This document shows positions 3,315 through 35,039 of a stretch of 50,089 nucleotides of DNA, one piece after another (positions within the stretch are counted from its first letter, which is position 1; every line of letters starts with the position of its first letter). The DNA comes from a virus (lineage: Duplodnaviria > Caudoviricetes). The position numbers and the translations under genes were made by a program. Under the pieces are notes generated by a model, which searched no databases, was not told the origin of the DNA, and saw nothing but the letters and a program-made list of their open reading frames with translations. Location: the IMG/VR virus record IMGVR_UViG_3300029183_000007, positions 1 to 50,089 of that record; one strand, written 5' to 3'.

Positions 3315-3331
3315 ATTCTCAGGAGGTATCC

Positions 3332-9833: not shown

Positions 9834-9940
9834 CGTATTGATTATGTCACCGACCTGTAAAATCGGCGTTTGTAGCTGGTTTTTGAAGGGTTGAGACTGC
9901 AAGGACGTGGAGCTGAAGACAAAAAAATAGAGCCGTTAAG

Positions 9941-11233: not shown

Positions 11234-11385
11234 CCATCCACGGACAAAAATGAGACACTAGCGCTCGAGGTACGCGCACTGATCGAGCATTGATAGCACA
11301 TGTACACCGAATCGCAACGAATCACACGTTGTTTCGACCTGGCGGTCTCACAACGTAAACCACTAGTTTCCTGGAGGAATCACAA

Positions 11386-11808
11386 ATGTACACTGCCACA
11401 ATGATTGCGTTCTGGATCGTCATGGCCATTGGCATCTTCAACTTCTTCTTTTCGATGATCTGGATTTACAATCTGTTCATCGTTCGCAACCACGCGTTCT
11501 ACAAGATGGCTACTGCAGAAGAGATTGACCAGATGGTGAGTCCAATCGAGTCTGGCGTGGAATCGATTCGAGCTGACCTGTCCGACGACTTGCGAGAGGC
11601 ACGTGCGACGGTTCAAAACCTGGTGGACGAACGCGCCGTCCTCAGGAGCGAGCTGAGGCAATCCCAGGATGAAGTCCAGCGGTTGCAGAAGATCATGTAC
11701 ACACCCAAGGGACTCGAAGGGTGGCGGTCGGGGGCGTTCGGGAGTGAGGCGAAGAACTTGGCCATACCGGACAGTCCGGACAGTCCGGACAAAGGGATAA
11801 AAAGCTAA
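11386..11808 (+). CDS. Membrane protein with coiled coil
   Basis: N-terminal TM helix, heptad pattern, GGAGG RBS. Confidence 0.75.
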   Translation: MYTATMIAFWIVMAIGIFNFFFSMIWIYNLFIVRNHAFYKMATAEEIDQMVSPIESGVESIRADLSDDLREARATVQNLVDERAVLRSELRQSQDEVQRLQKIMYTPKGLEGWRSGAFGSEAKNLAIPDSPDSPDKGIKS

Positions 11809-11816
11809 AAAGATAC

Positions 11817-11845
11817 TTGCACACCCAACCCAGGTGATGTAGAGT
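11817..11845 (+). promoter_or_regulatory. Sigma70-like promoter
   Basis: TTGCAC-17 nt-TAGAGT just upstream of an AAGGAGGT RBS. Confidence 0.5.
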
Positions 11846-11864
11846 AAATCGAAAGGAGGTGACC

Positions 11865-14031: not shown

Positions 14032-14568
14032 ATGTCTGGAATCCGAGTGAAGCGGAAGATTGAGAACCCCGAAACGTTTCCTATCACTGATGCTGAGATG
14101 GAAGGGGACGACGTCCTTATCCCGATGGGCTGTTTGGCCATGCCTGGGAACATCATGTTCGAGCGGCCAGCTTGGACAACGAAGTGCTTCGGGATGCTCG
14201 AATTCGCACCGATCGAGGTGGAACGGATTTGGGGCGGATTGGGTGAGACGCCCGTTAAAACCGTCCAGGAAGAAGAGGATACGCCGGTCTTGATCGTCTC
14301 TGGCCTATCGCCCTACTTCGATCTCATTTCGATGTTCGAGGGCATGAGCGGGAAAATCAAGATTCCTTCCTACATTTTCCGGCCAAACAGGATGGAGGAA
14401 GAGTTAGCCTACGACCCGGACAGCTTCGACGACATCATTGTCTATCGCCAGGACGAAATGACCGACCAAGAACGAGAGCATTTTTCGTACCTTTCAACCA
14501 AGCAAAGTAAACACCTAGACAGGAGCAAGCCGAATGAGCGCCGTTTTAAGTCAAGAAGAAACCGTTGA
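14032..14568 (+). CDS. Hypothetical protein
   Basis: 178-aa ORF, GGAGG RBS, abuts the upstream stop. Confidence 0.75.
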   Translation: MSGIRVKRKIENPETFPITDAEMEGDDVLIPMGCLAMPGNIMFERPAWTTKCFGMLEFAPIEVERIWGGLGETPVKTVQEEEDTPVLIVSGLSPYFDLISMFEGMSGKIKIPSYIFRPNRMEEELAYDPDSFDDIIVYRQDEMTDQEREHFSYLSTKQSKHLDRSKPNERRFKSRRNR

Positions 14569-14842
14569 GCTGATCAGGCACATTGGCGAAAAACAAGAAC
14601 CAGTGTGGATTCAGCACGGACGTAAGGAATATCGGGTTATGTCCGCCGTGCCAGCTGGTGCAAAATTGCTGTGCAATTGCTGCGGGCGTTTATCTGACCA
14701 CACAAATGACGTACAATTTGTAGTGGTGGACGAACGCGACTTGCCACAAGACGACTGGCCGGACGATCTTGACGAGATGGCCATGAATGGGGACTGTGAG
14801 GTTTCTGAATTCGATTTGGGAGAGCTAGATGACATTGATTAA
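14534..14842 (+). CDS. Hypothetical acidic protein with CNCC motif
   Basis: 102-aa ORF, AGGAG RBS. Confidence 0.65.
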   Translation: MSAVLSQEETVELIRHIGEKQEPVWIQHGRKEYRVMSAVPAGAKLLCNCCGRLSDHTNDVQFVVVDERDLPQDDWPDDLDEMAMNGDCEVSEFDLGELDDID

Positions 14843-16271
14843 ACAGATGCAGACGTGGACAGAGCAACTGGACGGACTTGACCCCATAGTGAGGCTTATC
14901 TTGACCGTGACACCTTGGGTACTGTTCATTCTGATTGCCATTGGGGACATCCTGGGGCGAAGAAAGCTCAAGGCTCAGATTGACCATCAGCGGTCTTTAA
15001 GCGACGATCTGCGAAATGCGATGAGCCTCATGGGAGAGGAGAAACGCCAGGCAGTGGCTGCACTCAAGGAGCGGGATAAGGAAGTGAAGAACCTGGAGTC
15101 CGCTAGCGTGCAGGCAGGGGATGTTATCGCCGAACTCAAGGTGGAACGTGAGGTTTTGGCCAAAGAAAAGAGGGAGCTATCAGAGCAATTAGGCCATAGC
15201 CGTCGGCACGTGGATGACCGAGCCAGAATGGTTGACCGGCTGACATGCGACATCAGGGATTTGAAGAAAGACCTAGAACGTGAGCAGCGAAAGCAAGAGC
15301 AACTGGATTCACAACGGCCAGTAGGCGAACGTTCGGACGCTGGCGAAACTATCACAGAGCTGCAACGCCAGGTCAAATCGCTGGAAGATCAGTTGGCCGG
15401 AGCCAAGCATAACATCAAGACGCTTATGTCGGAGTTGGGCAACGTGGCCGAGCGAGCGAACAAGCTGGAGTCGGAAAAGAACACGTTCTCCAACAGTAGC
15501 AAGCATTGGCATGATCAGTTCCACACAGCAGACTCCGCGCGTCGCAACCTGGCCGAGGACAAGCGTATGCTGGAGAACAAGCTGAACGCATCTGAGAAAG
15601 GATACGACGAGCTGTGCGGCAAGTACAATTCAGCCATGCACGAGCTGACGCAGTTCAAAGAACAAGGTCAGGGCTGTCACAATTGCCCAAGGCTTGCAGG
15701 GGAGTCCAACAAATACTACGACCGACTCAAGAAAGCCGAAGCCCGCATCGAAGAGCTGGAGCAAGACATCAAGGCACACGAAGCCGATGGGGAGCGAGTG
15801 GGATGGCAAGCCGACAGAATTAGAGAGTACGAGAAGGTAGTAGAAGACCTTCGCCAGCAATGCGATAGTCTGCGGGCGTCTTGGTCTGAGGTCAAGAACG
15901 AAGCCTACAGGCGAGGAGAGAAAATTGAGGAGCTGGAGGAGGAACTTTCCAAAGAACGTGAGGAAAGGGCTAAAGCTGACCAGCTGTGGAGTCCGAAGAA
16001 AACCAATAGTGAGGAGATAACCTACTCCGGTGACTTCGCACTGCCAATCATGGACGAAATTCACCAGCGGAGCATCAAGGCGAAAGATGCGATTGACCGA
16101 CTAGCCAAAGCACAGGCCGAACGCGACGACCTCAAAAAACAAGTGGCCACCCTCAGCCAAGCTGTCAAAGACTGGAAGAGCAAATACGACAAAGTCAGCA
16201 CCAACTGGCAAACTGTGGTTGACGCGATGGACAATAATGGTTTTGACGTGACCCCCCGATGCGACTCCTGA
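14829..16271 (+). CDS. Membrane-anchored long coiled-coil protein
   Basis: N-terminal TM helix, then more than 400 aa of heptad-rich sequence with an internal CHNC. Confidence 0.8.
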   Translation: MTLIKQMQTWTEQLDGLDPIVRLILTVTPWVLFILIAIGDILGRRKLKAQIDHQRSLSDDLRNAMSLMGEEKRQAVAALKERDKEVKNLESASVQAGDVIAELKVEREVLAKEKRELSEQLGHSRRHVDDRARMVDRLTCDIRDLKKDLEREQRKQEQLDSQRPVGERSDAGETITELQRQVKSLEDQLAGAKHNIKTLMSELGNVAERANKLESEKNTFSNSSKHWHDQFHTADSARRNLAEDKRMLENKLNASEKGYDELCGKYNSAMHELTQFKEQGQGCHNCPRLAGESNKYYDRLKKAEARIEELEQDIKAHEADGERVGWQADRIREYEKVVEDLRQQCDSLRASWSEVKNEAYRRGEKIEELEEELSKEREERAKADQLWSPKKTNSEEITYSGDFALPIMDEIHQRSIKAKDAIDRLAKAQAERDDLKKQVATLSQAVKDWKSKYDKVSTNWQTVVDAMDNNGFDVTPRCDS

Positions 16272-18777: not shown

Positions 18778-19530
18778 ATGGATTACAAGACATTCGAGAA
18801 AGCGATACGCGAGAATCCCAACGACCTGATGGCCAGGCAGGCTTATGGGGACTGGCTTGAAGAGCAGGACGGCGGAAAAGACGCTCTGTTTGCTGCGTAC
18901 ATCAAAGGCAACCATCGGCCACGTCGGGTAAAGAATCCGAAAACTATCCAGTTGCGGGGCGGACGGATTCCAATATCCAGGTACGCGGCGGCCAAAGAAA
19001 TGACCATCTACCACGGTTTTGTAGACGAAATCTGGATACCTGGCGGACGATGGGAGGCAGGATTCGGCTACTGGCAACGTCATGGCGCGGTGAGAACCGT
19101 TCACCTAACCACTAACCCCTCGGTAAGGCTTAACGCCACGTTTGATGGCACGCTGAAAATCGTGTATGGTAGACATTCGCTAAGCCTAACGGTGGCCGAC
19201 TTCCAGGAGGCTTTTGAGATGACGGACACGCACTCCGTGTTCGCAACCAAGGCTCTCTCGCGGATGTGGCCACAGATCACGTGGGATTTACCAGTCGACG
19301 ACAATATCCAAGAGTTGTTCTTTGAAGCGGTGCTGGCTCTGGCCAAGGAGTGGGAAAAGGCCAAGCGCGAGATGACTCAGGAAGAGTACGCGAGAGCCTT
19401 GGACGTCAAACGCCGGTCAATGCACCCCGCATCGTGGAACTTCCTTTCGACTCCGGAAATTGAGGCCATTCTATGCAAGACCCAGACGTCATCCGAGACC
19501 AACCCGGATACAACGCTGACAGCGCCATGA
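18778..19530 (+). CDS. TIGR02996 (repeat-companion) domain protein
   Basis: N-terminal FEKAIRENPNDLMARQAYGDWLEEQ...AAYI, later HGFVDEI. Confidence 0.85.
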   Translation: MDYKTFEKAIRENPNDLMARQAYGDWLEEQDGGKDALFAAYIKGNHRPRRVKNPKTIQLRGGRIPISRYAAAKEMTIYHGFVDEIWIPGGRWEAGFGYWQRHGAVRTVHLTTNPSVRLNATFDGTLKIVYGRHSLSLTVADFQEAFEMTDTHSVFATKALSRMWPQITWDLPVDDNIQELFFEAVLALAKEWEKAKREMTQEEYARALDVKRRSMHPASWNFLSTPEIEAILCKTQTSSETNPDTTLTAP

Positions 19531-19948: not shown

Positions 19949-20257
19949 ATGACACCAGAACAATTAGAAGATTCACGCTACAGGAAGTGGGTGTATCGAG
20001 AAGACAATCAGGGAATGGTGATACGGATACTTGAGTACCGTGGTGACGGCACGCTCCAAGACGCGTTCCATCCGGTGGCGTTCCACCGTGGGATGACGGA
20101 CGAGGACTTCCAAGCCGCTCGAAGGAATTACAAACTCGCAGTACAACTCCAGAACGAATATGAGTCACCCAAGAGACCCAGCAAGCGAAACGGAACCACT
20201 GTTTCCGAAACGGCTACCGACGCGAAAGACAATCAAGCGGATCAAGCTAACGCCTGA
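19949..20257 (+). CDS. Hypothetical protein
   Basis: 102-aa ORF upstream of the terminase genes. Confidence 0.6.
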   Translation: MTPEQLEDSRYRKWVYREDNQGMVIRILEYRGDGTLQDAFHPVAFHRGMTDEDFQAARRNYKLAVQLQNEYESPKRPSKRNGTTVSETATDAKDNQADQANA

Positions 20258-20771
20258 CATTGTCGCGGACGCTCGGATTCTGTTTCAGTCGTGCGCGTTT
20301 CCAGAAACGGCCATCGCCACGCTGGGAATTCCGCTCCCGGTCTGGAAAAAGTGGATGAAGCGGGCGCAAGAGGAGCTCCAACGGCTTGATGAAGTAGAGA
20401 CGTATTTCTCGCTCTATGGCAGATACCGTTCGCGAGCTGTCCACAATCAGCCCGATGTGCGGAAAGGCGAAGCGATCTACGTGGAGCTGTACCACGCGGC
20501 CACTGGTGGAGCGGCTAACTGTTGCAACACACTGGTGTCGTACATTGAAACGGCGGCTAAGGAAGATTGGCGGGCGGCGGCTTGGTTGGTGGAACGACGG
20601 TTCGAGGAATGGAACCCGGACATGAAACGGCTTAGGAAGCTGGAAAAACAGTTCGAGGAACTGGTAGAACAACAGCAGGCTAAAGCCGATGCAGAATTTA
20701 ATCGATCGAGTGGAAAGGCAAATCGACCAAATCGAACGATCGGGTTTGGTCAAGAAAAAACCGCTGGTTGA
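20160..20771 (+). CDS. terS: Terminase small subunit
   Basis: N-terminal HTH-like region, DWRAAAWLVERR motif, position before terL. Confidence 0.75.
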   Translation: MSHPRDPASETEPLFPKRLPTRKTIKRIKLTPDIVADARILFQSCAFPETAIATLGIPLPVWKKWMKRAQEELQRLDEVETYFSLYGRYRSRAVHNQPDVRKGEAIYVELYHAATGGAANCCNTLVSYIETAAKEDWRAAAWLVERRFEEWNPDMKRLRKLEKQFEELVEQQQAKADAEFNRSSGKANRPNRTIGFGQEKTAG

Positions 20772-22269
20772 GTACCAAGGCGATCCCGTCGGCTATATCG
20801 AGGACGTACTTGGTCATCGCCTTTGGCACAGACAACACGAAGTCTGCCAGGCACTTTACACCCCACCCTACAAAGCACTCGTTACGAGCTGTCACAAGAC
20901 CGGAAAAACCTTTCTGGCGGCGGCTCTCACTTCGTACTATCACGACTGTTACCCCAACTCGCTCGTCATCACCACTGGCCCATCTTCGGTGGCGGTCAAG
21001 GATCAACTCTGGCGTGAAGTTCGCGTCCAAAGGCGGGATGCTGGACTCGGCGGATTCACTGGCGAGAAGGCAACCGAGCTGTGGGTAGACCACGACTGGT
21101 GGGCCAAGGGATTCACCACGAAAGACGGTGAATCCATGCACGGACGTCACCAACGGCACATGTTCTTTGTTATCGACGAAGGGTGTGGCGTTCCCCCTTG
21201 GGTGTATTCCGTCTTCAAGTCGATGTTCCAACATACCGGACTGCATCACTGGCTCACCATTGGCAATCCGCTAGACACCACGTCGCAGATGTACCAAGAG
21301 GAATTCTTGCGCGACACGCAAGGCGAACTCTCTTGGAACATCATTCGCATGTCCGCCCTAGACCATCCGAACATCGACGCTGGGATGAGTGGCCGGGAAT
21401 TGCCGTTCCCCGCTGCGGTCGATCACAAGATGTTTGAGGCTTGGATTACCGACTACGGTTGCGATGAAATCCCGGTCGATGAAGTGACCGACATGGACTT
21501 CCAGTGGCCACCGAATTCGGGCAAGTGGTGGCGGCCATCGCCGGAATTCCAAGGCCGGGCGCTTGGCCAGTGGCCATCAGCAGGCACATTTGGCGTGTGG
21601 TCGGACTTGCTCTGGCGGCGGACACTCAAGCGTCAACCGATCCCGCAACCCGACGGTGAGTGGCTCCCGGAAGTCGGTTGCGACGTCGCTTCGCGCGGAT
21701 TCAATTGGACGGTCTTTCATGGCCGGATGGGGAATTGCTCGGTTTACCACGACCGCAAGAACGGTTGGAGCGGGCCACAAATCATAGGCAAGCTCAAGAA
21801 TTTGTGCCAAGAGTTGGCCGAACGGTACAACGCCAAACTACCCAAAAACGTGACCGGGATACGTCCAGAAGACATCCCATGCAAGGTGGACGAGAACGGC
21901 ATTGGGGAGAAAATCACTGAGTTTGCCGACGACTATAACTTTATCGGCGTTCGGTCAAGTTGGACTCACTGTTGCAATGTGGTACGCTATCCTAATGTGA
22001 GGTCAGAACTTTGGTTTGATACGGCAGAACAAGCCAGGGCTAATCAAGTCGACTTTTCCAGGATTCCAGCTCGCTACTTGTCAATGGTTCAACAGCAGGC
22101 TTTCGCACCGCAGTGGAAGTTTGACGGGAAAGGCAGGAAGCAAGTTGAGAAGAAGGAAGAAACTAGCAAACGGCTACATGGGCTGTCCCCTGACGACATG
22201 GACGCAGTGAATCTGTGTTACAGACGCGTAGGGACAAGCGATGTGGCTGAATTCGTCGAATCTGAGTAG
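20689..22269 (+). CDS. terL: Terminase large subunit
   Basis: Q motif (HRQHEV), Walker A SCHKTGKT, Walker B FVIDEG, IGNP; nuclease motifs GCDVA, VDENGIG, SPDDMDA. Confidence 0.93.
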   Translation: MQNLIDRVERQIDQIERSGLVKKKPLVEYQGDPVGYIEDVLGHRLWHRQHEVCQALYTPPYKALVTSCHKTGKTFLAAALTSYYHDCYPNSLVITTGPSSVAVKDQLWREVRVQRRDAGLGGFTGEKATELWVDHDWWAKGFTTKDGESMHGRHQRHMFFVIDEGCGVPPWVYSVFKSMFQHTGLHHWLTIGNPLDTTSQMYQEEFLRDTQGELSWNIIRMSALDHPNIDAGMSGRELPFPAAVDHKMFEAWITDYGCDEIPVDEVTDMDFQWPPNSGKWWRPSPEFQGRALGQWPSAGTFGVWSDLLWRRTLKRQPIPQPDGEWLPEVGCDVASRGFNWTVFHGRMGNCSVYHDRKNGWSGPQIIGKLKNLCQELAERYNAKLPKNVTGIRPEDIPCKVDENGIGEKITEFADDYNFIGVRSSWTHCCNVVRYPNVRSELWFDTAEQARANQVDFSRIPARYLSMVQQQAFAPQWKFDGKGRKQVEKKEETSKRLHGLSPDDMDAVNLCYRRVGTSDVAEFVESE

Positions 22270-22272
22270 CCA

Positions 22273-25200
22273 ATGGTAACGCAGCAATACTTCCAAAGTG
22301 GGCCACAACATCCTCCTGGCCTCATCCCGATTGCGAACTCGAACAACGTCAACGTGTACGAAGTTCCAGCGATTTTGGGGCCAGATGGCAAGCCGATCAT
22401 CAGACCGTATGACGGGTTTGCCGCTCCTCACGTCCTTGGATTCAACGCCATTCTCTCGTCTGGCCATTACGCCTACTATCATGGCCGATGGGACGAAGCC
22501 CGTCGAGACAGTATTGAAAACTCGTTGGCGATGGCGAACGATGCCCACCTGCAAGGCATCATGCAAGAGCGGAAATTGGCTGTTGCGTCCCTGCCGTGGC
22601 ATATCGACGTCCCGAACGAACGTGACCCGTACCAACGACACGTCCGCGACACACTCACCAAAATACTACGCCAGATACACCAGTTTCCCGCGATCCGCTG
22701 GGCATTACTCTCATCGATTTGGTACGGTCGCGCGGCGGTGCAGTTCCGCTACAAGTGGTCATACATCGACGGTCAAAGATGTCTCACGGTTCGCGATTGG
22801 CTCCCGATCAATGGGGACAAACTCGGCTTTACGCATGACCACCAACCCTACACGCTGATGCACTCGGCGGAAATTGATCGTTTAACTGGAGCCACGTACA
22901 TCACAACGACTGCTGGTGGACGTGGCCTAATGTGGATTGGAGATTGGCGTGATCGAATTACCATCAGCCAGCACTACGAACGCGATGACGTGGATTTTTG
23001 GAACCCCGAACAAGCCGGAGCGGTTCATGGTGTCGGAGTCCGATCTAAAATCTATTGGGTGGACTGGCTCCGAAACAATTGGCTCACAAAGGTTACAGAG
23101 TTTCTCGAACGCGCCGGAATGGGTTTGGAACTTTGGTACTACGCCAGCGGAGACACCAAGGCCAAGCAGAGAGTAACTGAAGCGGCGACCAAGAATCGGA
23201 CGCACAAAACACGCGTCATCGTTCCGTGGTTGGAGAGCCAGGGAGACCGTCCGTCAGTAGAAGTTGTGGACGTGCCGATGAACGGTGCGCAGATGCTTGT
23301 CCAACTCATGGAGTACATCGACCGAATCGAAGAGCGATATATCGTCGGCCAGCATATGTCGGCCTCGGCTCAAGCGACTGGTCTAGGCGATGACGGCCAA
23401 GCCGACTTCCAGCGAGACACCAAACAGCAAATTAGAAACGCCGACGCACACCAGCAAGACTCAGCTATCACGGGGACGGAGGAAGAACCGTCACTGCTTT
23501 ACATCCTTCAGAAATACACGTTTCCGGAGTCAGTCCCATCCGAGCAGAACCCAAAGGGATTTCATGCGACGTTCCACCACGATCTAGAAAAACTCGAAAG
23601 TCTCGAACGGTTGGAAGCGGCTCAAATCGTGGTTGGCATGGGCGCTCCGGTCAAACGCGACGATCTGTACGCGGCGTCCGGACTCACCCAGCCCGACGAC
23701 GGGGACGATGTGATTGGTTTTGAGATGGGAGCGGAGTACGCGCAACAGATGGCTCAAGGAGATCCAGGCCAGCAGCAACAGCCAGGCGAAGAAATGGGAC
23801 TTCCGCAAGTGGAAGATGAGGAAGAGTACGAAGAAGGCCAACAGCCGCAAGAGGGGGATTTCTCAGAAGACGACCTCTTGCAGATGTTCGAGCCAGACGA
23901 ATTGGAAGCATTGGGCATCGGTGGCCAGCAGCAACAAGCCGTCCCGTATCGCCAACCCGACCGGATGATTACCTACGATTCTGGCCGTTGGGTGACAATC
24001 GGTGCGAAAGAATCGGACGGGGAAAGCAAGGGCGGTTCGCGCGTGTTCATCAAGGACGGGGTAATCACCAAGGGACATCCCGACCTCACTGGCAAATCCA
24101 TCAACAACATGAAAGGCCAAGCGAAGGGCGAGGCTCCAGGTGTGGCCACCAGGCGAGACAAAGACCACGCGGTGGCCGTCATCCGTAAAGAGGCCAAACG
24201 CAAAGGGATCAATCCGAAAGAACTTGACCAACTGGCCAGCGAACTGATGGCACACGATGACGCTTATGGCAAAGACCGCAATCTCATGCTCAGTTCCGCT
24301 CGAACCATGTCGAAGGGCATGGGCTACGGCGATCTATCGACCATTGCTGCTAGGCACTCACGCGGGCAGATCGATCAAAGCCACGTGACCGGACTCGACG
24401 ACGTGGCGGCTCGGATGCAAGAAAGCTATCCGCACATGTTCCAAACCGAGGACGAACACACTCGCGAGCTGTTTGATATGCTCTTGGCCGGAAACTCTCA
24501 ACGGGCTGACCGGGCGAAAGTCTACGAACAAGCCCTAGAAATCATGGCCTCTGGTGGCGGTAGTCAAATCGAAGATGACGGTGACCCGTTCGGCGAAGTT
24601 CCGTTTTCTGGTGTTGGCCGGATGATCACTTACGAAGGAACGGCGCTCGGGACGGGTAGTAAAAAGACTGGCCTCATGCCATCGACTAGCCAGTCCTCAG
24701 CAAGCGACTTTCCACAGACAATGGAAGAATTCGCACAGCACAAACCCGGCGACAAGTGGCATCCAGTACAGACGAAACGCGGGACTTCAGCTTGGCAGAA
24801 TCCGTACTCCGGTCATGTCCACTATGGCTTGAATGCTCCGCAAGCTGACGCGCACGAACACGCCAGGAAGATGATCGAGAAGCGAAACGCTCCTCCGAAA
24901 TTCGAGCCAACCTACAGCTCTGAACGGTCAGAAGAAAAAACCGGATTCACTAACCAGTTCTTCCCAAAAGGCTCGCACGTGACCAGCTACGCCGAGCTTG
25001 TGGGCGCTCCGAAGGGTATGCAGGGTTATACGGTTCATGGGCGGCGAGTCCCGCATGAAATGCACATCGCGGCGGACGAAGACACACACCACCAGTTCCA
25101 CACGTTCGAGCGGACAGCTAAGATTCTTCCGTCTGGCGATCTGTCGATCTACTCGAATGAAAACCGCGTGCGGGGCAACCAACGAGGTACGGGAGCGGGA

Positions 25201-28089
25201 CTCAACGCGTTTTCTGATCAGGTGCAAAACTCGCACAAACATGGGGTGAAGAACATCACCAATCTGGGCGCGAGGGGGCAAAGCTACGTTGGCTACAAAG
25301 TCTGGCCAAAGTTGGGCTACGATGCTCCGCTCAAGATCGATCAAAAGTTGCAATTGCAGAACTCCAATCTTCCGCATCATGTCAAAATGGCTGAGACCGT
25401 TCTTGACCTCTACAAGTCCAAAGAGGGACAAGAGTGGTGGGCGAAGCATGGCACAGACATGCACTATACGTTCGACCTGCACCCAGACTCGAATTCGATG
25501 CGGACATTGAACGAGTATCGGCAACGCAAAGGACTCGAACCGATTGAAATGCACTCGAAGGAGGACTACGAAAAGCTGGGAGAAGAACACCGCCAACGGA
25601 ATCTGCCTTGGCTCCAAGATCAGTACAAACAGCTTCGCGGCGAAGGAATCGAGGGCATGCTTCCTTGGGACAACCAGATGAGCAGGCATCACAGGGAACG
25701 GCTTTCACACATCGCGGGACAGCACTACGACAACTGGACTCCCGAAGGCCAAGAAGATCACCCGTACAACCAGCACCGATTCTTTTCACGTCCTGGCCGG
25801 TTGCTCAATCGGCAGTACGAAGCAATGAAGTCTATCGTCAATCGGTTCATCGCGAAGGGCGTGCATGAATCGGGGCAATCCACATTTGAGCTGGACGAAA
25901 AAGCTTTGGCCGAATTCGAGAAGCTAGAGCAAGAGCATCTGGACACGCAGTATTTCAAGCCGACCAACGAAGAGATAGCATCGTTTTGGAAGTCGGCCTA
26001 CTGGCGTGCTGGCATAGAAATGCTTGGCACGGAAAAGATGATCGGCTTGATCGGCAAACAGGAAGAAGAATCTCCTCGCAACTACGCGGACGAACCGCAG
26101 CAAACACCAGCTCCAAAAACACTCGGCGGCCATGAGGAACAACCAGCGATTGGAAAAATGCGACACTTTCAGCCAGCAAATCACGAATTCGGCTCGCACG
26201 AACATCACAAAGATGTGGGAAGCGCGAGCAAGACGTACAAACAATTCTTCCCGCATCACAGCGGCCAAGGCTCCATCCAGCACTTTTTGGGCTTGCCGTC
26301 CGGCTCTAAGTCAAAGATGACTGGCCATACACCAGGCGGCGGATTCAATATCAAAGCGACCTCGGATGGTCACATGAGCAAGCATAAAATCCGCAGTGAC
26401 GAAGCGGGACGAATGCACTTGGACAACGTCGTCCACCACGGACGAAACACGCGGGAAGGCCAGCAACAGCTAGTCAACCAACACTTGCTCCAAGTGGTCA
26501 ACGCGCATCACGCGGGATTCCACGCAATCAACGCCCATGTCGGGAGGCAGGGACGGGCAAGCGGAGAGAGTGAATACAAGACACACACTGGCCATAAAGC
26601 ACTGGCTCAGCTTGGCTACGATGCTCCGCTCTCGGAAGAGATCAAGACCGAAGTGGCCGACCGCATGCGGGAGAATCGGTTCACTGACTTGGATTGGAAA
26701 GCCGACACGGTGCAAGACTTGATCAAGACCGATTTGGGTATGGAAATCTACGAGAAGATGGGACATACGCTTCCGCTGAAATTCGACCTGCACCCGGACA
26801 GCAACTCCATGCTGTTCTTCCGGGAATTCTTGCAAGGGCATGGTTTTGACGCGGATAAGCATCTGCCAACCTTGGACAGAGAGACTTACGAATCCCACAA
26901 AAAAGAGGGGATGGAGCGGAACAAGTCCTACGAACCCGACCCGGAAGAGCCGATCCAAAGCAAGTTCTTTTCTCCCTATGCGGCGGGCTATATGGAAGCG
27001 TTTTCTCACCAGAACGACCCGTTCGCCAAGCGAGACGAAAAGGACGAGGGTTACTTTGGGAATCTGCCCGAACAGGTCAGAACGGCCATCATGCAAGGGG
27101 TGGCGGAGAGAGAGCGGACAGGGGACAACTCAGAACTTCTGAACGCGTTTCGTGTCGCGTCGGACATGGCGGACGAAGAAGGCCACGACATCGATTCTCC
27201 GCTCAGGTCGTTCGGCGGCCTTACGTTCCGCGAAATGGTCGAACAGACTGGCCGGACTCGCGATCTTATCGGTGCGGAGAAGTTTGACAGCTCCGACGAC
27301 ATGGACACGTCGGTCTGGATGAATCGGCATGGTGAGGCTGCCCAGCACATGGCGGCGCTGCGGCCAAGTACCTATGAGAAATTTCAGGAAATGCCGCATT
27401 TCGAGGGACTGTCCAAGGACGAAATCTCGCAAGAGATTCTCAGGATGAGCGGTGATGAAGGTGGCCAGATTGAAGAAAACCTCTACGACAGTGACCCATC
27501 GTGGTATTACCACAATCCCAACACCCTCCAAGAACAGGGAGACGACTACAATGACGGTGAAGAATTCAGCATCACCGATTCCCACTCTCCTGGTGGCCGA
27601 CGAATTAAAAAGTTAGACGCGTTCCTCCAGAACGCCAACTATGCAAAAGAAGGGGTGGACGACCGATACTGGAAAGACCGGGTTACGTCGATTGAACACC
27701 ACGCGCGTCGGATGGGGATGAAGGAGATTGAATTCCGCAACATTGGCCCATTTGACGAGAACAGGCAGTTCCGAAAAACGGACAAGAACTTCATCGAAGC
27801 GATGGCGAACGCAGGCTATGACGGAGCGGTTGTCCCAAACATTCCGGCCATTGATGGCCATCCCATCAACATTCTGGAAGCGTTCCCGGACGTGTACAAG
27901 GATTACGATTGGTGGCCAGAAAATGCTCCGACGTTCCGCGACCTGACAAAAGACATAGGATTCTGGGACTGGTTTGAAGATGGCGGCCATGAGTGGCCAG
28001 GGTTTGCGTTCATTAGTTGGAGTAAGCGAGTCAAAGCGTTTCCCAAGCCCAGGGACGAAGAGGAGAGCGGCTTAGAGCCGTTGTGGTAG
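22273..28089 (+). CDS. Portal protein (DUF935/Mu gp29-like, ~aa 1-480) fused to a ~1450-aa cargo region with three GNAT-like repeats
   Basis: Position after terL; DAHLQGIMQERKLAV, SIWYGRA, WxxFLERAG, IVGQ, GLTQPDDGDDV; one continuous ORF; repeated GYDAPL and FDLHPDSNSM. Confidence 0.85.
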   Translation: MVTQQYFQSGPQHPPGLIPIANSNNVNVYEVPAILGPDGKPIIRPYDGFAAPHVLGFNAILSSGHYAYYHGRWDEARRDSIENSLAMANDAHLQGIMQERKLAVASLPWHIDVPNERDPYQRHVRDTLTKILRQIHQFPAIRWALLSSIWYGRAAVQFRYKWSYIDGQRCLTVRDWLPINGDKLGFTHDHQPYTLMHSAEIDRLTGATYITTTAGGRGLMWIGDWRDRITISQHYERDDVDFWNPEQAGAVHGVGVRSKIYWVDWLRNNWLTKVTEFLERAGMGLELWYYASGDTKAKQRVTEAATKNRTHKTRVIVPWLESQGDRPSVEVVDVPMNGAQMLVQLMEYIDRIEERYIVGQHMSASAQATGLGDDGQADFQRDTKQQIRNADAHQQDSAITGTEEEPSLLYILQKYTFPESVPSEQNPKGFHATFHHDLEKLESLERLEAAQIVVGMGAPVKRDDLYAASGLTQPDDGDDVIGFEMGAEYAQQMAQGDPGQQQQPGEEMGLPQVEDEEEYEEGQQPQEGDFSEDDLLQMFEPDELEALGIGGQQQQAVPYRQPDRMITYDSGRWVTIGAKESDGESKGGSRVFIKDGVITKGHPDLTGKSINNMKGQAKGEAPGVATRRDKDHAVAVIRKEAKRKGINPKELDQLASELMAHDDAYGKDRNLMLSSARTMSKGMGYGDLSTIAARHSRGQIDQSHVTGLDDVAARMQESYPHMFQTEDEHTRELFDMLLAGNSQRADRAKVYEQALEIMASGGGSQIEDDGDPFGEVPFSGVGRMITYEGTALGTGSKKTGLMPSTSQSSASDFPQTMEEFAQHKPGDKWHPVQTKRGTSAWQNPYSGHVHYGLNAPQADAHEHARKMIEKRNAPPKFEPTYSSERSEEKTGFTNQFFPKGSHVTSYAELVGAPKGMQGYTVHGRRVPHEMHIAADEDTHHQFHTFERTAKILPSGDLSIYSNENRVRGNQRGTGAGLNAFSDQVQNSHKHGVKNITNLGARGQSYVGYKVWPKLGYDAPLKIDQKLQLQNSNLPHHVKMAETVLDLYKSKEGQEWWAKHGTDMHYTFDLHPDSNSMRTLNEYRQRKGLEPIEMHSKEDYEKLGEEHRQRNLPWLQDQYKQLRGEGIEGMLPWDNQMSRHHRERLSHIAGQHYDNWTPEGQEDHPYNQHRFFSRPGRLLNRQYEAMKSIVNRFIAKGVHESGQSTFELDEKALAEFEKLEQEHLDTQYFKPTNEEIASFWKSAYWRAGIEMLGTEKMIGLIGKQEEESPRNYADEPQQTPAPKTLGGHEEQPAIGKMRHFQPANHEFGSHEHHKDVGSASKTYKQFFPHHSGQGSIQHFLGLPSGSKSKMTGHTPGGGFNIKATSDGHMSKHKIRSDEAGRMHLDNVVHHGRNTREGQQQLVNQHLLQVVNAHHAGFHAINAHVGRQGRASGESEYKTHTGHKALAQLGYDAPLSEEIKTEVADRMRENRFTDLDWKADTVQDLIKTDLGMEIYEKMGHTLPLKFDLHPDSNSMLFFREFLQGHGFDADKHLPTLDRETYESHKKEGMERNKSYEPDPEEPIQSKFFSPYAAGYMEAFSHQNDPFAKRDEKDEGYFGNLPEQVRTAIMQGVAERERTGDNSELLNAFRVASDMADEEGHDIDSPLRSFGGLTFREMVEQTGRTRDLIGAEKFDSSDDMDTSVWMNRHGEAAQHMAALRPSTYEKFQEMPHFEGLSKDEISQEILRMSGDEGGQIEENLYDSDPSWYYHNPNTLQEQGDDYNDGEEFSITDSHSPGGRRIKKLDAFLQNANYAKEGVDDRYWKDRVTSIEHHARRMGMKEIEFRNIGPFDENRQFRKTDKNFIEAMANAGYDGAVVPNIPAIDGHPINILEAFPDVYKDYDWWPENAPTFRDLTKDIGFWDWFEDGGHEWPGFAFISWSKRVKAFPKPRDEEESGLEPLW

Positions 28090-28587
28090 ATGGCCAGGAA
28101 CAAAGTCAAAATGTGGTCTCGGTCTCGTCCGTCGCGGAAGCTCCCCCACTTTCGTTACGGTGGACAGACCGGAGTGGCGAGCCAGGAAGATACCGCACGG
28201 TTTCTCGAAGGGCTGCCCTACGTGGTCGAATCGAGCTGGATTGAATCGATTCAGTATTTCGAGCGACGCGAAGGGCTGCTGATCGTTCTCAAGAGCGGGA
28301 CGGTTTCGAGTTACATTCCGGTCGGCTCTTGGGAAGCTCTCGACTTGGCCACGGCATCAAGTAAGGGAAAATGGATTTGGGATCACATCTACGTGCGTGG
28401 GAAGGGCAACGGAGAGCATAGGCAGAAAACAGTATTTCGGGGCAACGTGTTCACAGATGAGGACGTGGAACTACTCCGAGATGAAGACTTTGAGAACGAA
28501 CTTTTCAAGAGGTACTACTTCGATGACCCAACTCCTCCAAGCAAACCCGACCCAGGATTCTTTAAGCCGGTTTCACGACAAAACTAA
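28090..28587 (+). CDS. KTSC-domain protein
   Basis: VESSWIESIQY...L.I.LKSG...Y..V...L.TASSKGKWIWDHI. Confidence 0.8.
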   Translation: MARNKVKMWSRSRPSRKLPHFRYGGQTGVASQEDTARFLEGLPYVVESSWIESIQYFERREGLLIVLKSGTVSSYIPVGSWEALDLATASSKGKWIWDHIYVRGKGNGEHRQKTVFRGNVFTDEDVELLRDEDFENELFKRYYFDDPTPPSKPDPGFFKPVSRQN

Positions 28588-29896
28588 GTGGAATAGCGTT
28601 TGGGACGGTGTGTACGAAAACGTCCCGGTGTTCCTCGCGCACGAGCGGAAATTCGACGATGAGACGATTGTGGTCGATGAAAAACGTCTGAACAGAATTT
28701 TCGAGAACACGAAACGGATGGAAAACGACCGGGGCGTGATACCTCGCGGACTGCTTGGCTCGCACTCCAAAAAGGACGCGAAGCCAGAGGACAAGCCAAC
28801 GATTGGGAGCTACTACCAGTTCACCCATGTTGGAAATTACGGCAAGGACGAAGTACCATGTATTTTTGCGCGTCAATTCGTGTGCAAGGGGGCGATGGAT
28901 GAAGTAAAGAAATATCCGTTCCGATCATCGGAATACTACGACGGCTCGGACACAATCAAAGCTGTAGCACAACTCAGCGACGATCCCTATTTCGATATGG
29001 GGATGATGCTGTACGGCGATGATGACAACCAAGTCCGGGTTTACAAGCTCAGGTCAATCGGCGAATCCAAAGAGGGAGAGCCACGGCTCTACATGGCCGT
29101 AACGCCAAACACTCCGCCAGTGGCCGGAGAAGGGATTGGGATGGGAATGAGTGGGGCAATGTCCGACCCAACACTCCCACCACGAAACGCAGGGACGACA
29201 ACTTTGGATGAGGGCATCAAAGCTCAGATTGACGCGTACATGCTGCAATTCTTACCACAGCTGGCCGAACAACTTGGCCTGGGTGGGGCGTCGGGAATGG
29301 CGGCGATGGGATCAGCTCCGGGGAGTCCAGAAAGCTACATTCCAGGATTCCTTGGCGGTGACGAAGGAAAAGCAAACTTACCCTATTCTGGAGATCAACC
29401 TATGACTACTCCGAGGCAAGACGACCGAGCGATTGAGCATCAGCAGGAGCTAAATGCACTCAAAGCGCAGTTGGAAGAATCCAACAAAATCAACAGACAG
29501 CTTCTTTACCAATCGGACGAATCCGAAGCCCGACGCGAATTGACGCAGCTCAAAGCGGAAGGCAAATCCGTGTCTATCGAACAAATGCTTCCGCAAGTGA
29601 TGGCTCTTCCGAAAGAGCAACGAGCGGGTTTCTATCAAATGGTTCGCGACAACTTCAAAACCGACCCCGCCGCTCCGGTCACGTATGGCAACGATGGCCA
29701 GCCGGTTCACATGGTACAGACCGAACCGAACAAAGTTCCCGAACCTGGCCAAGGTCATTACTCTTCGCCAGTTGACCGGCTCACAGCGGAAGAATCGGAA
29801 AAATGCCGTAACTACGCACTTCGCCTGCAAGCCCAAGGAAAGATGGTCAGCTACGAAGAAGCGGCTCGCGAATTGTACCCAGCGAAAGTTTTGTAA
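28523..29896 (+). CDS. Prohead protease/scaffold (Mu gpI-like)
   Basis: VPVF.AH, GSH, YPFRSSEY, AVAQL..P, followed by a low-complexity and coiled-coil C-terminus; position before the capsid genes. Confidence 0.8.
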   Translation: MTQLLQANPTQDSLSRFHDKTKWNSVWDGVYENVPVFLAHERKFDDETIVVDEKRLNRIFENTKRMENDRGVIPRGLLGSHSKKDAKPEDKPTIGSYYQFTHVGNYGKDEVPCIFARQFVCKGAMDEVKKYPFRSSEYYDGSDTIKAVAQLSDDPYFDMGMMLYGDDDNQVRVYKLRSIGESKEGEPRLYMAVTPNTPPVAGEGIGMGMSGAMSDPTLPPRNAGTTTLDEGIKAQIDAYMLQFLPQLAEQLGLGGASGMAAMGSAPGSPESYIPGFLGGDEGKANLPYSGDQPMTTPRQDDRAIEHQQELNALKAQLEESNKINRQLLYQSDESEARRELTQLKAEGKSVSIEQMLPQVMALPKEQRAGFYQMVRDNFKTDPAAPVTYGNDGQPVHMVQTEPNKVPEPGQGHYSSPVDRLTAEESEKCRNYALRLQAQGKMVSYEEAARELYPAKVL

Positions 29897-30415: not shown

Positions 30416-31474
30416 ATGGTTGTGGCCTACTCATACCCAGGTCAGAATAATGTATACATCCCGTCGCATGAGGCAACAAACAACCTCATCGTGGGATTCT
30501 CTCGCGCACCATCCACGTTTGCGATTAACCGATGGTGTCAAATCATTCCGGTTACTCACGAAGTAGGCCGGTTCATGCGAATCGCTCCCGAAAACGCGGG
30601 ACGTCGCACACTCCTGTCCGGTGAAGATCAGTTCTGGGCAGACGGCCACGCTCGGCCAACCAACCATACGGATATGGAAAAGTTTGAATTCGATGCGTAC
30701 CAAACTCGGCGGTACAACTTCGGATTCAACATTGGGGGGATTACCCAAGAGCAAGCCAGCTGGGACATCATCCAGTCGGAAACGGAAGATCACGCGCAAC
30801 AGGCGATGACTCTCCGTACCATCCTCGCGACAGCAGTGGCCACGGACGTCACCAACTACGTGAGCCAGAACACTGACACGGTAGCCAACATCCTTGGCAC
30901 AGCGGGAGCCGGGCTGAACCAAGCCACGGTTGCGAATGTGTATATCAAACGCACGCTTAACCACATGGCTAACCGCGTCCACCTCAACACCTGGGGTGTG
31001 GTCAAACCGCAACAGATGCGAATCGTGATGAATCCGAATTCGGCACAGCGATTAGCAGAAACTCAAGAAGTCCATAGCTACATCAAAGAATCTCGGTTCT
31101 CCGAGCCAGAACTCATTGGCGGGCGGATGACGACCAACAATTGGGGATTGCCTGCGAGCCTGTACGGGTTTGAAATCGTCATTGAAGATGCGGTCTACAA
31201 CGATACTCGCAAGACTGCTGGCGGCCAGGTCAATACGAACATGCAATACGTTTGGCCGGACAACGTCTTGGGATTCTTCAGCCGCATTGGTGGCGTGACG
31301 GGCAAACTCGGCAAAAACTTCTCTTCCGTAGCCTGCTTTATGAAAACGGAAATGAAGGTTGGGACTTGCTACGAATCCTGGAACGAGCGAACACTTGTCG
31401 CAGTGACCGAAAACTACGGATTTGAGATGATCAGTGAGCGTTCTTCTTTTCTCGCAACTTCGGCCTTTGTGTAA
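30416..31474 (+). CDS. Major capsid protein
   Basis: 352 aa, strong AAGGAG RBS, synteny, HK97-like RIVMNP...SLYGFEIVI. Confidence 0.85.
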   Translation: MVVAYSYPGQNNVYIPSHEATNNLIVGFSRAPSTFAINRWCQIIPVTHEVGRFMRIAPENAGRRTLLSGEDQFWADGHARPTNHTDMEKFEFDAYQTRRYNFGFNIGGITQEQASWDIIQSETEDHAQQAMTLRTILATAVATDVTNYVSQNTDTVANILGTAGAGLNQATVANVYIKRTLNHMANRVHLNTWGVVKPQQMRIVMNPNSAQRLAETQEVHSYIKESRFSEPELIGGRMTTNNWGLPASLYGFEIVIEDAVYNDTRKTAGGQVNTNMQYVWPDNVLGFFSRIGGVTGKLGKNFSSVACFMKTEMKVGTCYESWNERTLVAVTENYGFEMISERSSFLATSAFV

Positions 31475-31994: not shown

Positions 31995-34900
31995 ATGCGA
32001 ACACGAAAACCGGTGTTAAGGCTGCGGGCTTCTGCCCGCCCGACGTTGTTTCAAGGGTGCGGGAGTCTTTCTGGACTCCCGACTCCCCCCATCATTTCCG
32101 ACACAGTTGGGCTTGATCATTACGTGCGAGCCGATTGGGGCTATCAAGACCAATCGATGCAAACGCTCGCTTCGTCCAGTGGCCACAATGTTGTCGCTCT
32201 CAAGGATTTCTCGGCTGGCGAAAATCATTTTGATGAAACTATCCCAGCAGGCAAAGAACCGACATACGAACCGAATGTCTTTAACACGCATCCTGCGATA
32301 GTGTTTGATGGCGCAAATGATTATTTGCGCAGTGTGTTTGGAGCGGATCAAGGTAGCCCACAGCACTACTTCATTACTTTCTCACTACAAGGAACGAATA
32401 TAGGGCAGACATTATTCGACGATTCAAACAATCTGAATAACAATCGCGTTTATGGGCAAAGTGGAGGTTCTACTAACACCGATCTCTCTATGTACGTTAC
32501 TGGCGGGCTAGCATTGCCTGAAACGGTCAGCAATGACATTACCACCACATGTGAATTCCTCTTTAATGGGGCAAGCTCGAAATGTCGGATTAATGGAAGT
32601 GACTATGCGGCGGGTGATGTGGGTGATATTGCTGATCTTCTCCAAGGGATTACTCTTGGTTCGCAAGGGGGCGGGGGCAGCACACACATGCAGATGAAAT
32701 TCGCGGAGTTTCGTCGATTCAATGTTGTGAAGTCGGACAGCGAAGCTGACGACATCATGTGTGAGATGATTCAGAGGTACAACGCCATCGTTCCTGTATC
32801 AAGCATTTCGCCAGTACAAACCAATCTTCTCGCCGAGTGGCGTAACGCGAGTGGGTCGATTCTCAATGATGAATGGTGTCGGATCATCGCCTTGGACGGA
32901 AAAGATGTCAGTTGTTGGCGAGACGCAAAGAATGATAAAGAAGCCAAGCAGCTCGTTTTCTCTCAAAAGCCGAGCTACGACGAGACTGATACCGCAGTCT
33001 TTTTCAGTGGCACAGACGAGAATTTAGTTGTCGAAGATGCTGCGGATTTAGATTTTGGCGATGGTGTCAATGATGAACCGTTTAGTGTTTCCGCACGGTT
33101 CAAGACTACGCAACCTTCGTCTGTTCACATGATGACATTGTCACGCGACAACATCGCGGACAACTCATACAGCGTGTGGTGTTCTGTGCCTGGGGGGACG
33201 GTAGACAGAATCAGATTCATCATTCGGGATTCTGGCGGCACGGTTACACTTCAGTGTGACTCGTCTGTCCTTGCTGTCAATGATGATGCGTTCCACACGG
33301 TAACGTACACCTACGATGGGTCTGGAGATGAGACGGGACTGGAAGTCTATCTTGATGGTGTCAATGTTGTTTCGTCTCGTCAAGAATTGGGAGGCACATA
33401 TTCTGCGACAGAATCCGGCACTCAGCGATTACGCATAGGCGGTTTAAAAAGTGGCTCTAATGTTGTCAATGAATTCACTGGAGAGATTTCCGGTGTCCAA
33501 GTTCACGAAGCCGTATTGACTGCACAGAATGCACTGGACATTCATTGTGGCTACGTGCAAGACGAGATTCCGGAAAACTCCACCACAAGTGATTCTCCCT
33601 CGGCGGCCAACGTTGTGGCTCATTGGCGAGCGACAAGCGGCGAAGTGTACAGTGGGCCATGTTGTCGCGTGACAGCGAACGATGCGGAAGCCGTTTATTG
33701 CTGGTGGGACATCTCCGGAAACCACCACGAAGCAAAACAGCCGACACTAGGCAGTCGGCCAGACTACTCGGCGTCGGACAACTCGCTCGCGTTCGACGGT
33801 GCGACGGCGTTTTTAGAAGTCGATGATCACGATGATTTCACTTTTTCCAATGGGTCGAACGATCTGCCTTTTTCGGTGGCGGTGAATTGGTCGAGCAACA
33901 ACACTGCGTCACCACAAGGCATTGCGGGCAAGGCAGATCACTTCCAAGATGAAAACTCTGAGTGGTATCTGATCTACATTTCAGGGCAGATTTATTTCCG
34001 AATCACCGACCAACTCAACTCTGCGTACATTGGGAAGCGGATAGCGATCACGCTCGACGGTACGTACCGATCCATCACAGTGACGTATGACGGTTCCGGC
34101 TTAGAATCGGGAATCAATATCTACTTCGACGGTGTGTTGCAGTCTGCCGTTAGTGCGAGTGGCGGCATCGGTTTTTCCAGAATGCGGAATTCCGACTCAA
34201 AATTTTACATTGGCCGCCGAGAAGCGTCCGGGGCGTTCCTCACCGGCAATCTCAAGGATGTTCAAGTTCTCAATAAGGAACTCACGTTAGCCGAAGTACA
34301 AGCCATCAGCGACTACCACAATCCAGGATACCCGGTTTCTGACTATGTGTTCCTCATGGATGACGAATCTGAAAACGTGTTCTCAGATACAGGATGCTCG
34401 ACGGAAATCACTGATCTAGGGGCGGTGGCATGCTGGCATGATGTTTCGGTGAACGGATTCGAGGCAACACAAATGGTGATGGCGAATCGTCCTCAATGGG
34501 ATGATGATGGGCCGTGGATTGAGTTCGATGCGGTGACAGACGTTCTTGAAATCGCCGATGACGACCTGCTTTCGTTTGGCGATGGCGCGACGGATGATCC
34601 GTTCTCGATTGCGGGGTGGGTTTATCCCGGTTCGGCATATATGGTCGACAAAGCTATCAACACCGTTGCGGGAGAATGGTTCGTTTATTTTCATGCTGGT
34701 GAAGTGTTTTTCGGTGTGATTGACAGATCGACTGGGGCGAGAGTGAGCATAAAGTCAGCTTCCGCCACTACAGCGACATGGGCGCACTACACGTTTACTT
34801 ATAATGGGAATGGTGCGGAATCAGGATTAAACATCTACCGAGACGGTTCGCTTCTAACACCTACGGGAAATTCTGGTGGCAGTTACGTGGCTATGGAGAA

Positions 34901-35039
34901 CGGCGTCGAGCCAGTGAATTTCGGAAGAACTTTGAACGCTGGTGCGAACTTACAACGTCTTCATCTCGTAGCGTTATTTGATCGTGTTCTAACGGGAACG
35001 GAAATCACGAACCTCGCTGCTTACGGCGATCCATCGTAG
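31995..35039 (+). CDS. Multi-LamG/concanavalin-like repeat virion protein
   Basis: Four ~250-aa units; V.CW.D, PFS.., TYDGSG.E.G..IY.DG recur. Confidence 0.8.
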   Translation: MRTRKPVLRLRASARPTLFQGCGSLSGLPTPPIISDTVGLDHYVRADWGYQDQSMQTLASSSGHNVVALKDFSAGENHFDETIPAGKEPTYEPNVFNTHPAIVFDGANDYLRSVFGADQGSPQHYFITFSLQGTNIGQTLFDDSNNLNNNRVYGQSGGSTNTDLSMYVTGGLALPETVSNDITTTCEFLFNGASSKCRINGSDYAAGDVGDIADLLQGITLGSQGGGGSTHMQMKFAEFRRFNVVKSDSEADDIMCEMIQRYNAIVPVSSISPVQTNLLAEWRNASGSILNDEWCRIIALDGKDVSCWRDAKNDKEAKQLVFSQKPSYDETDTAVFFSGTDENLVVEDAADLDFGDGVNDEPFSVSARFKTTQPSSVHMMTLSRDNIADNSYSVWCSVPGGTVDRIRFIIRDSGGTVTLQCDSSVLAVNDDAFHTVTYTYDGSGDETGLEVYLDGVNVVSSRQELGGTYSATESGTQRLRIGGLKSGSNVVNEFTGEISGVQVHEAVLTAQNALDIHCGYVQDEIPENSTTSDSPSAANVVAHWRATSGEVYSGPCCRVTANDAEAVYCWWDISGNHHEAKQPTLGSRPDYSASDNSLAFDGATAFLEVDDHDDFTFSNGSNDLPFSVAVNWSSNNTASPQGIAGKADHFQDENSEWYLIYISGQIYFRITDQLNSAYIGKRIAITLDGTYRSITVTYDGSGLESGINIYFDGVLQSAVSASGGIGFSRMRNSDSKFYIGRREASGAFLTGNLKDVQVLNKELTLAEVQAISDYHNPGYPVSDYVFLMDDESENVFSDTGCSTEITDLGAVACWHDVSVNGFEATQMVMANRPQWDDDGPWIEFDAVTDVLEIADDDLLSFGDGATDDPFSIAGWVYPGSAYMVDKAINTVAGEWFVYFHAGEVFFGVIDRSTGARVSIKSASATTATWAHYTFTYNGNGAESGLNIYRDGSLLTPTGNSGGSYVAMENGVEPVNFGRTLNAGANLQRLHLVALFDRVLTGTEITNLAAYGDPS

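Follow-up and report, generated by a model that had tools for sequence, protein, structure and literature searches.

How can the essential 12-subunit ring of a phage portal bear large passengers, and what might such passengers do? The question is raised by a stretch of 50,089 nucleotides (positions 1 to 50,089 of IMG/VR record IMGVR_UViG_3300029183_000007; hereafter the window) from an uncultured, aquatic phage of the Caudoviricetes, in which a single open reading frame (ORF) encodes a portal protein that continues into a tail of approximately 1,450 amino acids (aa). Twelve such tails of 156 kDa would amount to about 1.9 MDa over the DNA channel. We propose, with a probability of roughly 0.55, that this protein is a Mu-type portal with a tail of swappable modules, that the tail enters the prohead, is cut after tyrosine motifs and is ejected with the DNA, and that one of its domains, a predicted GNAT-fold unit, acetylates a host target. 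The parts of the chain are these:

22273..28089, + strand: portal-cargo fusion ORF, 1,938 aa and 220 kDa, of which the tail from aa 569 on makes up 156 kDa
22531..23682 (aa 87-470), + strand: Mu-type portal domain (PF06074, E 1.3e-29; phrog_113)
23740..23961, + strand: acidic Gln/Glu-rich linker, recognised by sequence and composition, isoelectric point about 4
23962..23979, + strand: boundary motif 1, RMITY-D, with Tyr568 as predicted protease site; pattern shared with boundary 2 and with the candidate protease/scaffold gene
23977..24618, + strand: module A, a WVTIG-type start peptide plus domain; mobile cassette with homologues in relatives
24619..24636, + strand: boundary motif 2, RMITY-E, with Tyr787 as predicted protease site; same pattern
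24757..24831, + strand: start peptide of module B, of the W..QTK.G..AW.NP type; aa 796-881 are common to the portal fusion P0022 (E 5e-16)
24949..25554, + strand: unit 1, predicted GNAT-fold domain with an intact acetyl-CoA motif A (R-x-x-G-x-G, aa 971-976)
26074..26088, + strand: boundary motif 3, PRNY-A, before the unit-2 module, with Tyr1271 as predicted protease site; first of the 68 tyrosines by a matrix from relatives
26230..26850, + strand: unit 2, degenerate paralogue of unit 1
27640..28017, + strand: unit 3, perhaps what is left of a unit-1-type fold (its C-terminal half), from a forced half-profile alignment

The fusion of portal and tail is genuine. The first-pass annotation, made from the letters of the window, had read the N-terminal part as a portal and the frame as running past it without a stop, and both readings hold: PF06074 (Portal_Mu) scores 104 bits against a cut-off of 23.9 and is the sole Pfam match in the ORF, and positions 22273-28089 form one uninterrupted frame. 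The window was found in three public runs of one study, and no RNA run was listed among its holders. One assembled contig (not reads) of run X1 (positions 20000-25106, depth 488) and one of run X2 (20809-27067, depth 148) both cross the junction at 23700-24000 with 0 differences and 0 gaps, which speaks against a missed stop after the portal. Since these runs, represented by contigs of amplified libraries, are possibly the source of the window itself, they demonstrate a clean assembly and not an independent occurrence, and this is the one point that an explanation by assembly or sequencing artefact has in its favor; with dozens of independent relatives showing the same architecture, we consider that explanation largely refuted and extremely improbable. 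Contig branches at 26050, 27038 and 28096 were considered as module-swapped variants and rejected as uninterpretable: their depth is 5-19, some of them keep the frame while others break it, and primer-like loose ends occur in the library. A sequence check located every motif quoted in the first-pass annotation where it had been placed, and the 18-nucleotide identity reported between 25315-25332 and 26614-26631 is exact.

Long, variable portal tails are a trait of this lineage. A search limited to long proteins recovered 14 other portals of 806-1,917 aa, whose cargo includes ADP-ribosyltransferase (ART), topoisomerase IB, 2H, SNF2 and InPase domains. DNA scans made with no length selection gave 64 portal ORFs, which fell to 39 at 90% core identity and to 34 once 5 that ran off their contigs had been dropped; in these complete, non-redundant portals more than 300 residues follow the core in 19, 201-300 in 4, and 200 or fewer in 11. 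Homologous portals with variable C-terminal cargo, which had been anticipated, therefore do exist, and the accompanying figure of about 500 aa for portals of this family is right for Mu (512 aa) and wrong for the present lineage, where long tails are common. Relatives also carry linkers rich in D, E, Q, G and P after the portal core. The likeness of the portal to that of Mu is remote (E 3e-5); neither the portal nor unit 1 matched any cultured or GenBank phage, and scans of genome contigs for the portal, with the single protein and with alignment A3, gave no match.

The tails behave as assemblies of movable parts. Homologues of module A occur in four relatives (P0005 aa 799-1004, E 1e-46; P0011 aa 525-743; P0071 aa 1522-1736; P0102 aa 1425-1615), at four different positions. 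Module A had no match in Pfam, PHROG, NCBIfam or PADLOC, and neither it nor the regions behind units 1 and 2 contain a recognisable catalytic domain. Among the relatives, P0022 combines GNAT, ART-PolyVal and kinase-like domains, and P0006 combines ART and topoisomerase IB; the type IB topoisomerase catalytic domain, fused to portals P0006 and P0010, is an unusual candidate virion cargo. Cargo also occurs unfused. Locus L013 has a short portal, 68% identical to that of P0007, and a separate cargo ORF 46% identical to the fused tail of P0007, and in L012 and L013 free-standing cargo ORFs have, close to their start, look-alikes of the module B start peptide that were identified by eye. In the branch formed by L025, L030, L031 and L044 the portal tail is only 13-43 aa, so that these loci are natural tail-less controls. 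Behind a short-tailed portal in L011, positions 9205-15469 hold genes that look, by eye, like those of glycosyltransferases and methyltransferases.

How such a tail might be taken apart is suggested by a feature that the first-pass annotation overlooked. Tyrosine motifs at the module boundaries, shared with a candidate protease/scaffold gene, suggest that the tail is cut into separate modules and would not be delivered on the portal. Boundaries 1 and 2 have 16 of 18 nucleotides in common (repeat family D17). Among the 54 ORFs of the window (15,506 aa) the boundary patterns occur elsewhere only in the gene that begins at 28523, where RNYA is found in the scaffold part only. In 32 related portals, which together display five kinds of start peptide, a tyrosine lies no more than 10 residues upstream of the start peptide in 29 of 42 cases against a background of 23%, tyrosine being far the most enriched of the 20 residues at this position; in loci fetched later and scored with the same patterns the figure is 7 of 11 against 20.5%. 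The residue that follows the tyrosine is A, G, S or E for 66 of 112 scaffold tyrosines, compared with 56 of 237 in portal cores. The same start peptides follow lysine on HK97-type portals (4/4 cases, 2 proteins) and Phe-Ala on other Mu-type portals (4/4 cases, 3 proteins), the counts for each portal class being small. Internal translation starts at the methionine of RMITY were set aside, since most boundary motifs in relatives have no methionine.

A candidate for the cutting enzyme is encoded a short distance downstream:

28523..29896, + strand: candidate prohead protease plus scaffold, with a His codon at 28763, Ser at 28925, the domain-end Tyr at 29012, scaffold RNY-A at 29813 and KMVSY-E at 29852

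Prohead proteases of the protease I type are defined by a catalytic His and Ser. Both residues are invariant in the candidate and its relatives (27 of 27 sequences for each) and align with the conserved His and Ser of Mu protease I, to which the gene has a weak co-linear match (E 0.03 over 104 columns; E 0.076 with more rows, where decoys gave 0.44 to 0.87). Its N-terminal domain closes with a motif of the boundary type, and others lie within the scaffold part. Predictions of a complex between the protease and a boundary peptide returned 0.31, 0.56 and 0.01 in separate runs with controls that did not fold; they give no verdict and were used neither for nor against cleavage. The candidate protease of one relative (L002, 15027-19448) has an extension of about 1,300 aa with Tyr motifs and start peptides, the scaffold there being a separate gene, so that in L002 cargo is apparently carried on the protease as well. 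The protease domains of L025 and L030 close with a Leu-Ser-Lys motif, not Tyr.

The best-defined passenger is unit 1, which is predicted to consist of a GNAT core with a C-terminal elaboration of its own. Its AlphaFold2 model, calculated from an alignment of 32 sequences, has a mean predicted local distance difference test (pLDDT) of 89.5. A Foldseek search of the PDB with this model returned rows of acyl- and acetyltransferases, the best match being to GCN5 (E 4e-4, template modelling score [TM] 0.34), and VIA-align gave a best Z of 8.4 (root-mean-square deviation 4.9, 139 residues aligned), the 50 rows of its list differing by no more than 2 Z units; RimI (5isv), whose type of GNAT forms a clade described in polyvalent proteins (PMC5512222), is at Z 6.9 one of many near-tied GNATs. 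Much closer models were found among uncharacterised phage proteins, one of them annotated as a head-morphogenesis protein. The family profile of unit 1 matches a solved GNAT across motifs A and B (E 6.5e-4). Motif A, which binds acetyl-CoA, has the pattern R/Q-x-x-G-x-G/A; it is intact here, and both of its glycines are 85% conserved across the family. The earlier description of unit 1 as GNAT-like with a motif A is thus in line with the predicted fold. Units 1 and 2 (24949-26850) are both histidine-rich, at 7.4% and 9.2%.

The family to which unit 1 belongs is large and is not tied to the Mu-type portal. A search of 1.84 billion representatives with unit 1 gave 2,141 clusters at E <= 0.001, mostly long proteins, and 77 of 151 proteins with a match contain two to four copies. 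Among the best 150 matches, 14 are fused to Portal_Mu, 6 to three other portal families and 15 to MuF; 141 of the 150 were scanned by Pfam, and the other 9, at most 234 aa in length, are too short to include a carrier. We view the portal as one of several interchangeable carriers and not as the delivery device itself.

Unit 2 is related to unit 1 at 30% identity over 212 columns (E 1.7e-19, z = 24, with 0 of 300 shuffles scoring as high) and is found at E 4e-28 by a family hidden Markov model (HMM) built without this protein. It had been described as a relative that lost the glycine motif, and this is correct: both motif-A glycines are replaced, as are Tyr116, Trp119 and Trp159. Among 228 domains that span these sites, a set picked by likeness to unit 1 in which decayed copies are for that reason under-sampled, 196 retain all four features and unit 2 alone has none of them. 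Judged by these residues, unit 2 is likely to be catalytically inactive, and it probably serves as a decoy or a non-catalytic binder or is a duplicate in the course of decay. A tree gives no resolution of its origin (support 0.24); its closest match is unit 1, at 31%.

The first-pass annotation had counted three related units, and for the third the claim is not established; a third GNAT copy is weakly indicated. Compared with unit 2, unit 3 has z 3.9 and its score is reached by 2 of 300 shuffles; compared with unit 1 the values are z 2.0 and 12 of 300, and the family HMM gives E 0.074. An hhalign comparison found no match to the family, and no homologue of unit 3 appeared among 1,357 candidates of similar total length. 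A single-sequence model (pLDDT 43, no fold match) was unusable, and leads from the ESM Atlas were all below 0.9. When the segment, which was selected because of its similar look, was forced onto the C-terminal half of the family profile, it scored 27.4 bits against 6.2 +/- 4.7, a value reached by 0 of 300 shuffles and 0 of 201 real windows; in the same alignment unit 1 scored 139 and unit 2 scored 72, and unit 3 also stood above six ART-PolyVal controls. We put the odds that unit 3 is a remnant of the unit-1 fold at about even. An ART-PolyVal reading of this segment, for which GYDG (5.9 bits) was the whole basis, was not adopted.

Taken together with what is known of other phages, these features can be arranged as a sequence of events. 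The tail would enter the prohead together with the portal, and we have little doubt that it comes to lie inside. The C-terminus of the portal points into the capsid, where C-terminal fusions to the T4 portal are also located; T4 accepts such fusions on at most about half of its 12 portal subunits (PMC3012670), a limit that, by analogy, argues for the removal of twelve 156-kDa tails. The predicted head protease would then cut the tail after tyrosines to give pieces of about 24, 56 and 76 kDa, a step that we consider probable. Virions of Mu contain gp29 without its last 124 residues, a loss attributed to protease I (PMC11915804), and in SPN3US a single motif marks the sites where the head protease cleaves both the portal and ejection proteins (PMC10052503). 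The released modules would be ejected with the DNA, an outcome we favor with some reserve. By analogy with Rac, a phage GNAT reported to disable host RNA polymerase (PMC7552054), unit 1 may then acetylate a host protein, for example a component of defence or transcription; that it is an active enzyme with a target of this kind is a tentative suggestion, to which we give slightly less than even odds. A more ambitious version of this scheme is that the lineage has made the disposable C-terminal propeptide of a Mu-type portal into a 12-copy cassette loader, in which modules placed behind a Tyr site and a start peptide are packaged, released and ejected, the common payload being a virion-delivered acetyltransferase family (more than 2,000 clusters) that acts on a host target, here accompanied by a dead copy as decoy or regulator, and the start peptides serving as portable tags. 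We offer this as speculation and rather doubt that all of it will stand.

Several observations count against the scheme of packaging, cleavage and ejection. A nearby tyrosine is missing at 13 of 42 start peptides in the related portals and at 4 of 11 in the later loci, most of these exceptions having Phe or His; the module B start peptide lies 41 residues behind its tyrosine; and the matrix from relatives that puts Tyr1271 first ranks Tyr787 4th and Tyr568 9th of 68. Since the motif patterns were written after inspection and the relatives are not independent of one another, p-values for the enrichment overstate it. The gene at 28523 has no match in Pfam, PHROGs or PDB sequence searches and none to Mu protease I alone, so that the protease is called by position, the invariant His and Ser, and a weak profile similarity (E 0.03 to 0.08, hhalign probability under 2%). 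For unit 1, the structural match spans only the GNAT core (TM about 0.35) and is tied across many GNAT subfamilies, and for that reason we name no substrate.

It is possible, if rather unlikely, that the modules are cut and packaged as we propose and yet are not injected, acting instead in the particle or in the producing cell by modifying phage protein or DNA or simply as filler. Mom enzymes, which have a GNAT fold, modify phage DNA (PMC7824862), and the lack of a recognisable catalytic domain in module A and behind units 1 and 2 would suit such a role; against this, the same type of portal carries ADP-ribosyltransferases, 2H phosphoesterases, a kinase-like domain and InPase, classes for which injection has been proposed (PMC5512222), and the fast turnover of cassettes fits conflict with a host better than a structural function. 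We give somewhat less weight still to the idea that the tail stays on the portal, the Tyr motifs being seams of cassette recombination or binding tags. Boundaries 1 and 2 are as alike as duplicated seams would be, the identity of the protease is weak, and about 80% of SPN3US head proteins are uncut (PMC10052503). Recombination seams do not, however, account for the recurrence of these motifs at two places free of cassette exchange, namely the scaffold and the end of the protease domain, nor for the way in which the residue before shared start peptides varies with portal class, and the tail of the Mu portal is missing from virions (PMC11915804). That unit 1 is a growth-arresting toxin of the tRNA-acetylating type, delivered in the manner of MuF proteins with unit 2 or the downstream gene as antidote, seems to us improbable. 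TacT and AtaT are among its fold matches (Z 7.1 to 7.6) and the family is found fused to MuF, as counted above; those Z-scores are tied with protein and small-molecule acetyltransferases, most family members are without a degenerate partner, and the presence of the KTSC-like gene downstream is independent of cargo. The ORF also has no MuF domain, as the first-pass annotation had noted. MuF (PF04233) was absent from the ORF and from the whole record, which is linear and rated 41% complete.

Our preferred reading, of a portal tail that is trimmed to release injected modules, combines elements of several described systems and coincides with none of them. Fusions of portals to PBECR, 2H and InPase domains, together with two GNAT families in polyvalent proteins, were described by Iyer et al. 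(2017, PMC5512222), who proposed packaging and injection, and fusions to Nudix and ART domains have been added since (PMC9503650). The protein described here resembles the polyvalent proteins in being a large multi-domain product of the head-gene block, in this case fused to the portal, and membership among them is plausible. The present chain contains only GNAT copies and the uncharacterised module A; domains of disparate activity are joined in relatives such as P0022 and P0006. Processing of polyvalent proteins is ascribed mainly to built-in metallopeptidases, whereas none was detected in the present ORF, and neither a GNAT on a portal nor recurring boundaries with protease motifs is mentioned in the available portion of that paper (PMC5512222). 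Mu gp29 belongs to the same Pfam portal family and offers a parallel for trimming by protease I (PMC11915804). Inspection by eye shows an Ala-Leu-Ser-Ala-type motif in the portal tail of Mu and again in its scaffold, whereas the motif here is Tyr-based; the Mu tail is short, in contrast to the tail of about 1,450 aa in the window, and has no known cargo, and Mu has a MuF gene separate from its portal.

The MuF polymorphic toxins (Jamet et al. 2017, PMC5576092) share with our system a variable C-terminal cargo on a head-associated carrier encoded next to the terminase, and the GNAT family of unit 1 also occurs on MuF carriers. The present system is not a MuF toxin. MuF carriers are present in 1 to 2 copies and bear one C-terminal toxin, whereas the portal is present in 12 copies and bears several modules, and in the window there is neither a MuF domain nor an evident immunity gene. 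The word acetyltransferase is absent from the main text of the paper on MuF toxins (PMC5576092). The matured internal and ejection proteins of T4 and SPN3US are comparable in that a head protease cuts a short motif common to the portal and to ejected proteins (PMC10052503), and in T4 counter-defence proteins of diverse kinds are loaded by means of a targeting peptide (PMC3012670). Such cargoes are made as separate proteins, each with an N-terminal propeptide, whereas the modules here are fused to the portal. Rac of the phiKMV-like phages is a GNAT that the abstract of the study does not present as part of the virion (PMC7552054). A literature search that took in few subscription papers showed none on GNAT-portal fusions or on Tyr-delimited portal polyproteins; the family may be included in the architecture files that accompany PMC5512222 online.

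The genes around the fusion support its assignment to the head region. The portal gene stands between the terminase and head genes, in the same order as in related loci:

20160..20771, + strand: terminase small subunit (phrog_4102, E 3e-10)
20689..22269, + strand: probable terminase large subunit, named from its place behind the small terminase gene and ahead of the portal gene and from a P-loop-like motif; its only PHROG match is an unnamed one
28090..28587, + strand: KTSC-like gene (PF13619, E 3e-5, slightly below cut-off)
30416..31474, + strand: probable major capsid protein, named from its position and conserved neighbours in related loci

The last of these had no family match in Pfam or PHROG searches. 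Homologues of the KTSC-like gene occur in 22 of 64 related loci, upstream or downstream of the portal, and just 1 of these 22 has the GNAT family. A gene kept across the lineage whatever the cargo is unlikely to be a cognate immunity gene, and we rejected it as such.

Elsewhere in the record, a 1,014-aa protein with three LamG/concanavalin-like repeats (31995-35039), encoded directly after the capsid genes, is probably a head or neck fibre, and a RecD2-like helicase (3296-5638) and a C5 cytosine methyltransferase (7326-8084) are ordinary phage genes. The gene at 18778-19530 has a TIGR02996 domain above cut-off. This domain is typical of Gemmata-like Planctomycetota, and it hints at a host in the Planctomycetota. 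The only match in a species genome is L023 (CAZWFX010000099.1), a 5-kb contig binned as Saccharibacteria, which may be a misbinned phage fragment. PADLOC and tRNA scans of the record returned nothing.

Portal-fused effectors were proposed as early as 2017, and the present case extends that theme by joining trimming in the style of Mu to cargo of the polyvalent and MuF type. The earlier proposals were made from sequence alone and gave no account of how an essential 12-subunit ring could bear large passengers. The locus described here offers a testable account, by way of candidate cut sites shared with the scaffold, the precedent of Mu, and relatives in which the cargo is fused, split off or missing. 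A large and mostly unannotated GNAT family that rides on both portals and MuF proteins may well supply an injected enzyme that acts against the host, and if the start peptides are tags for loading or ejection, they would lend themselves to the packaging of proteins in phage heads and to protein delivery.

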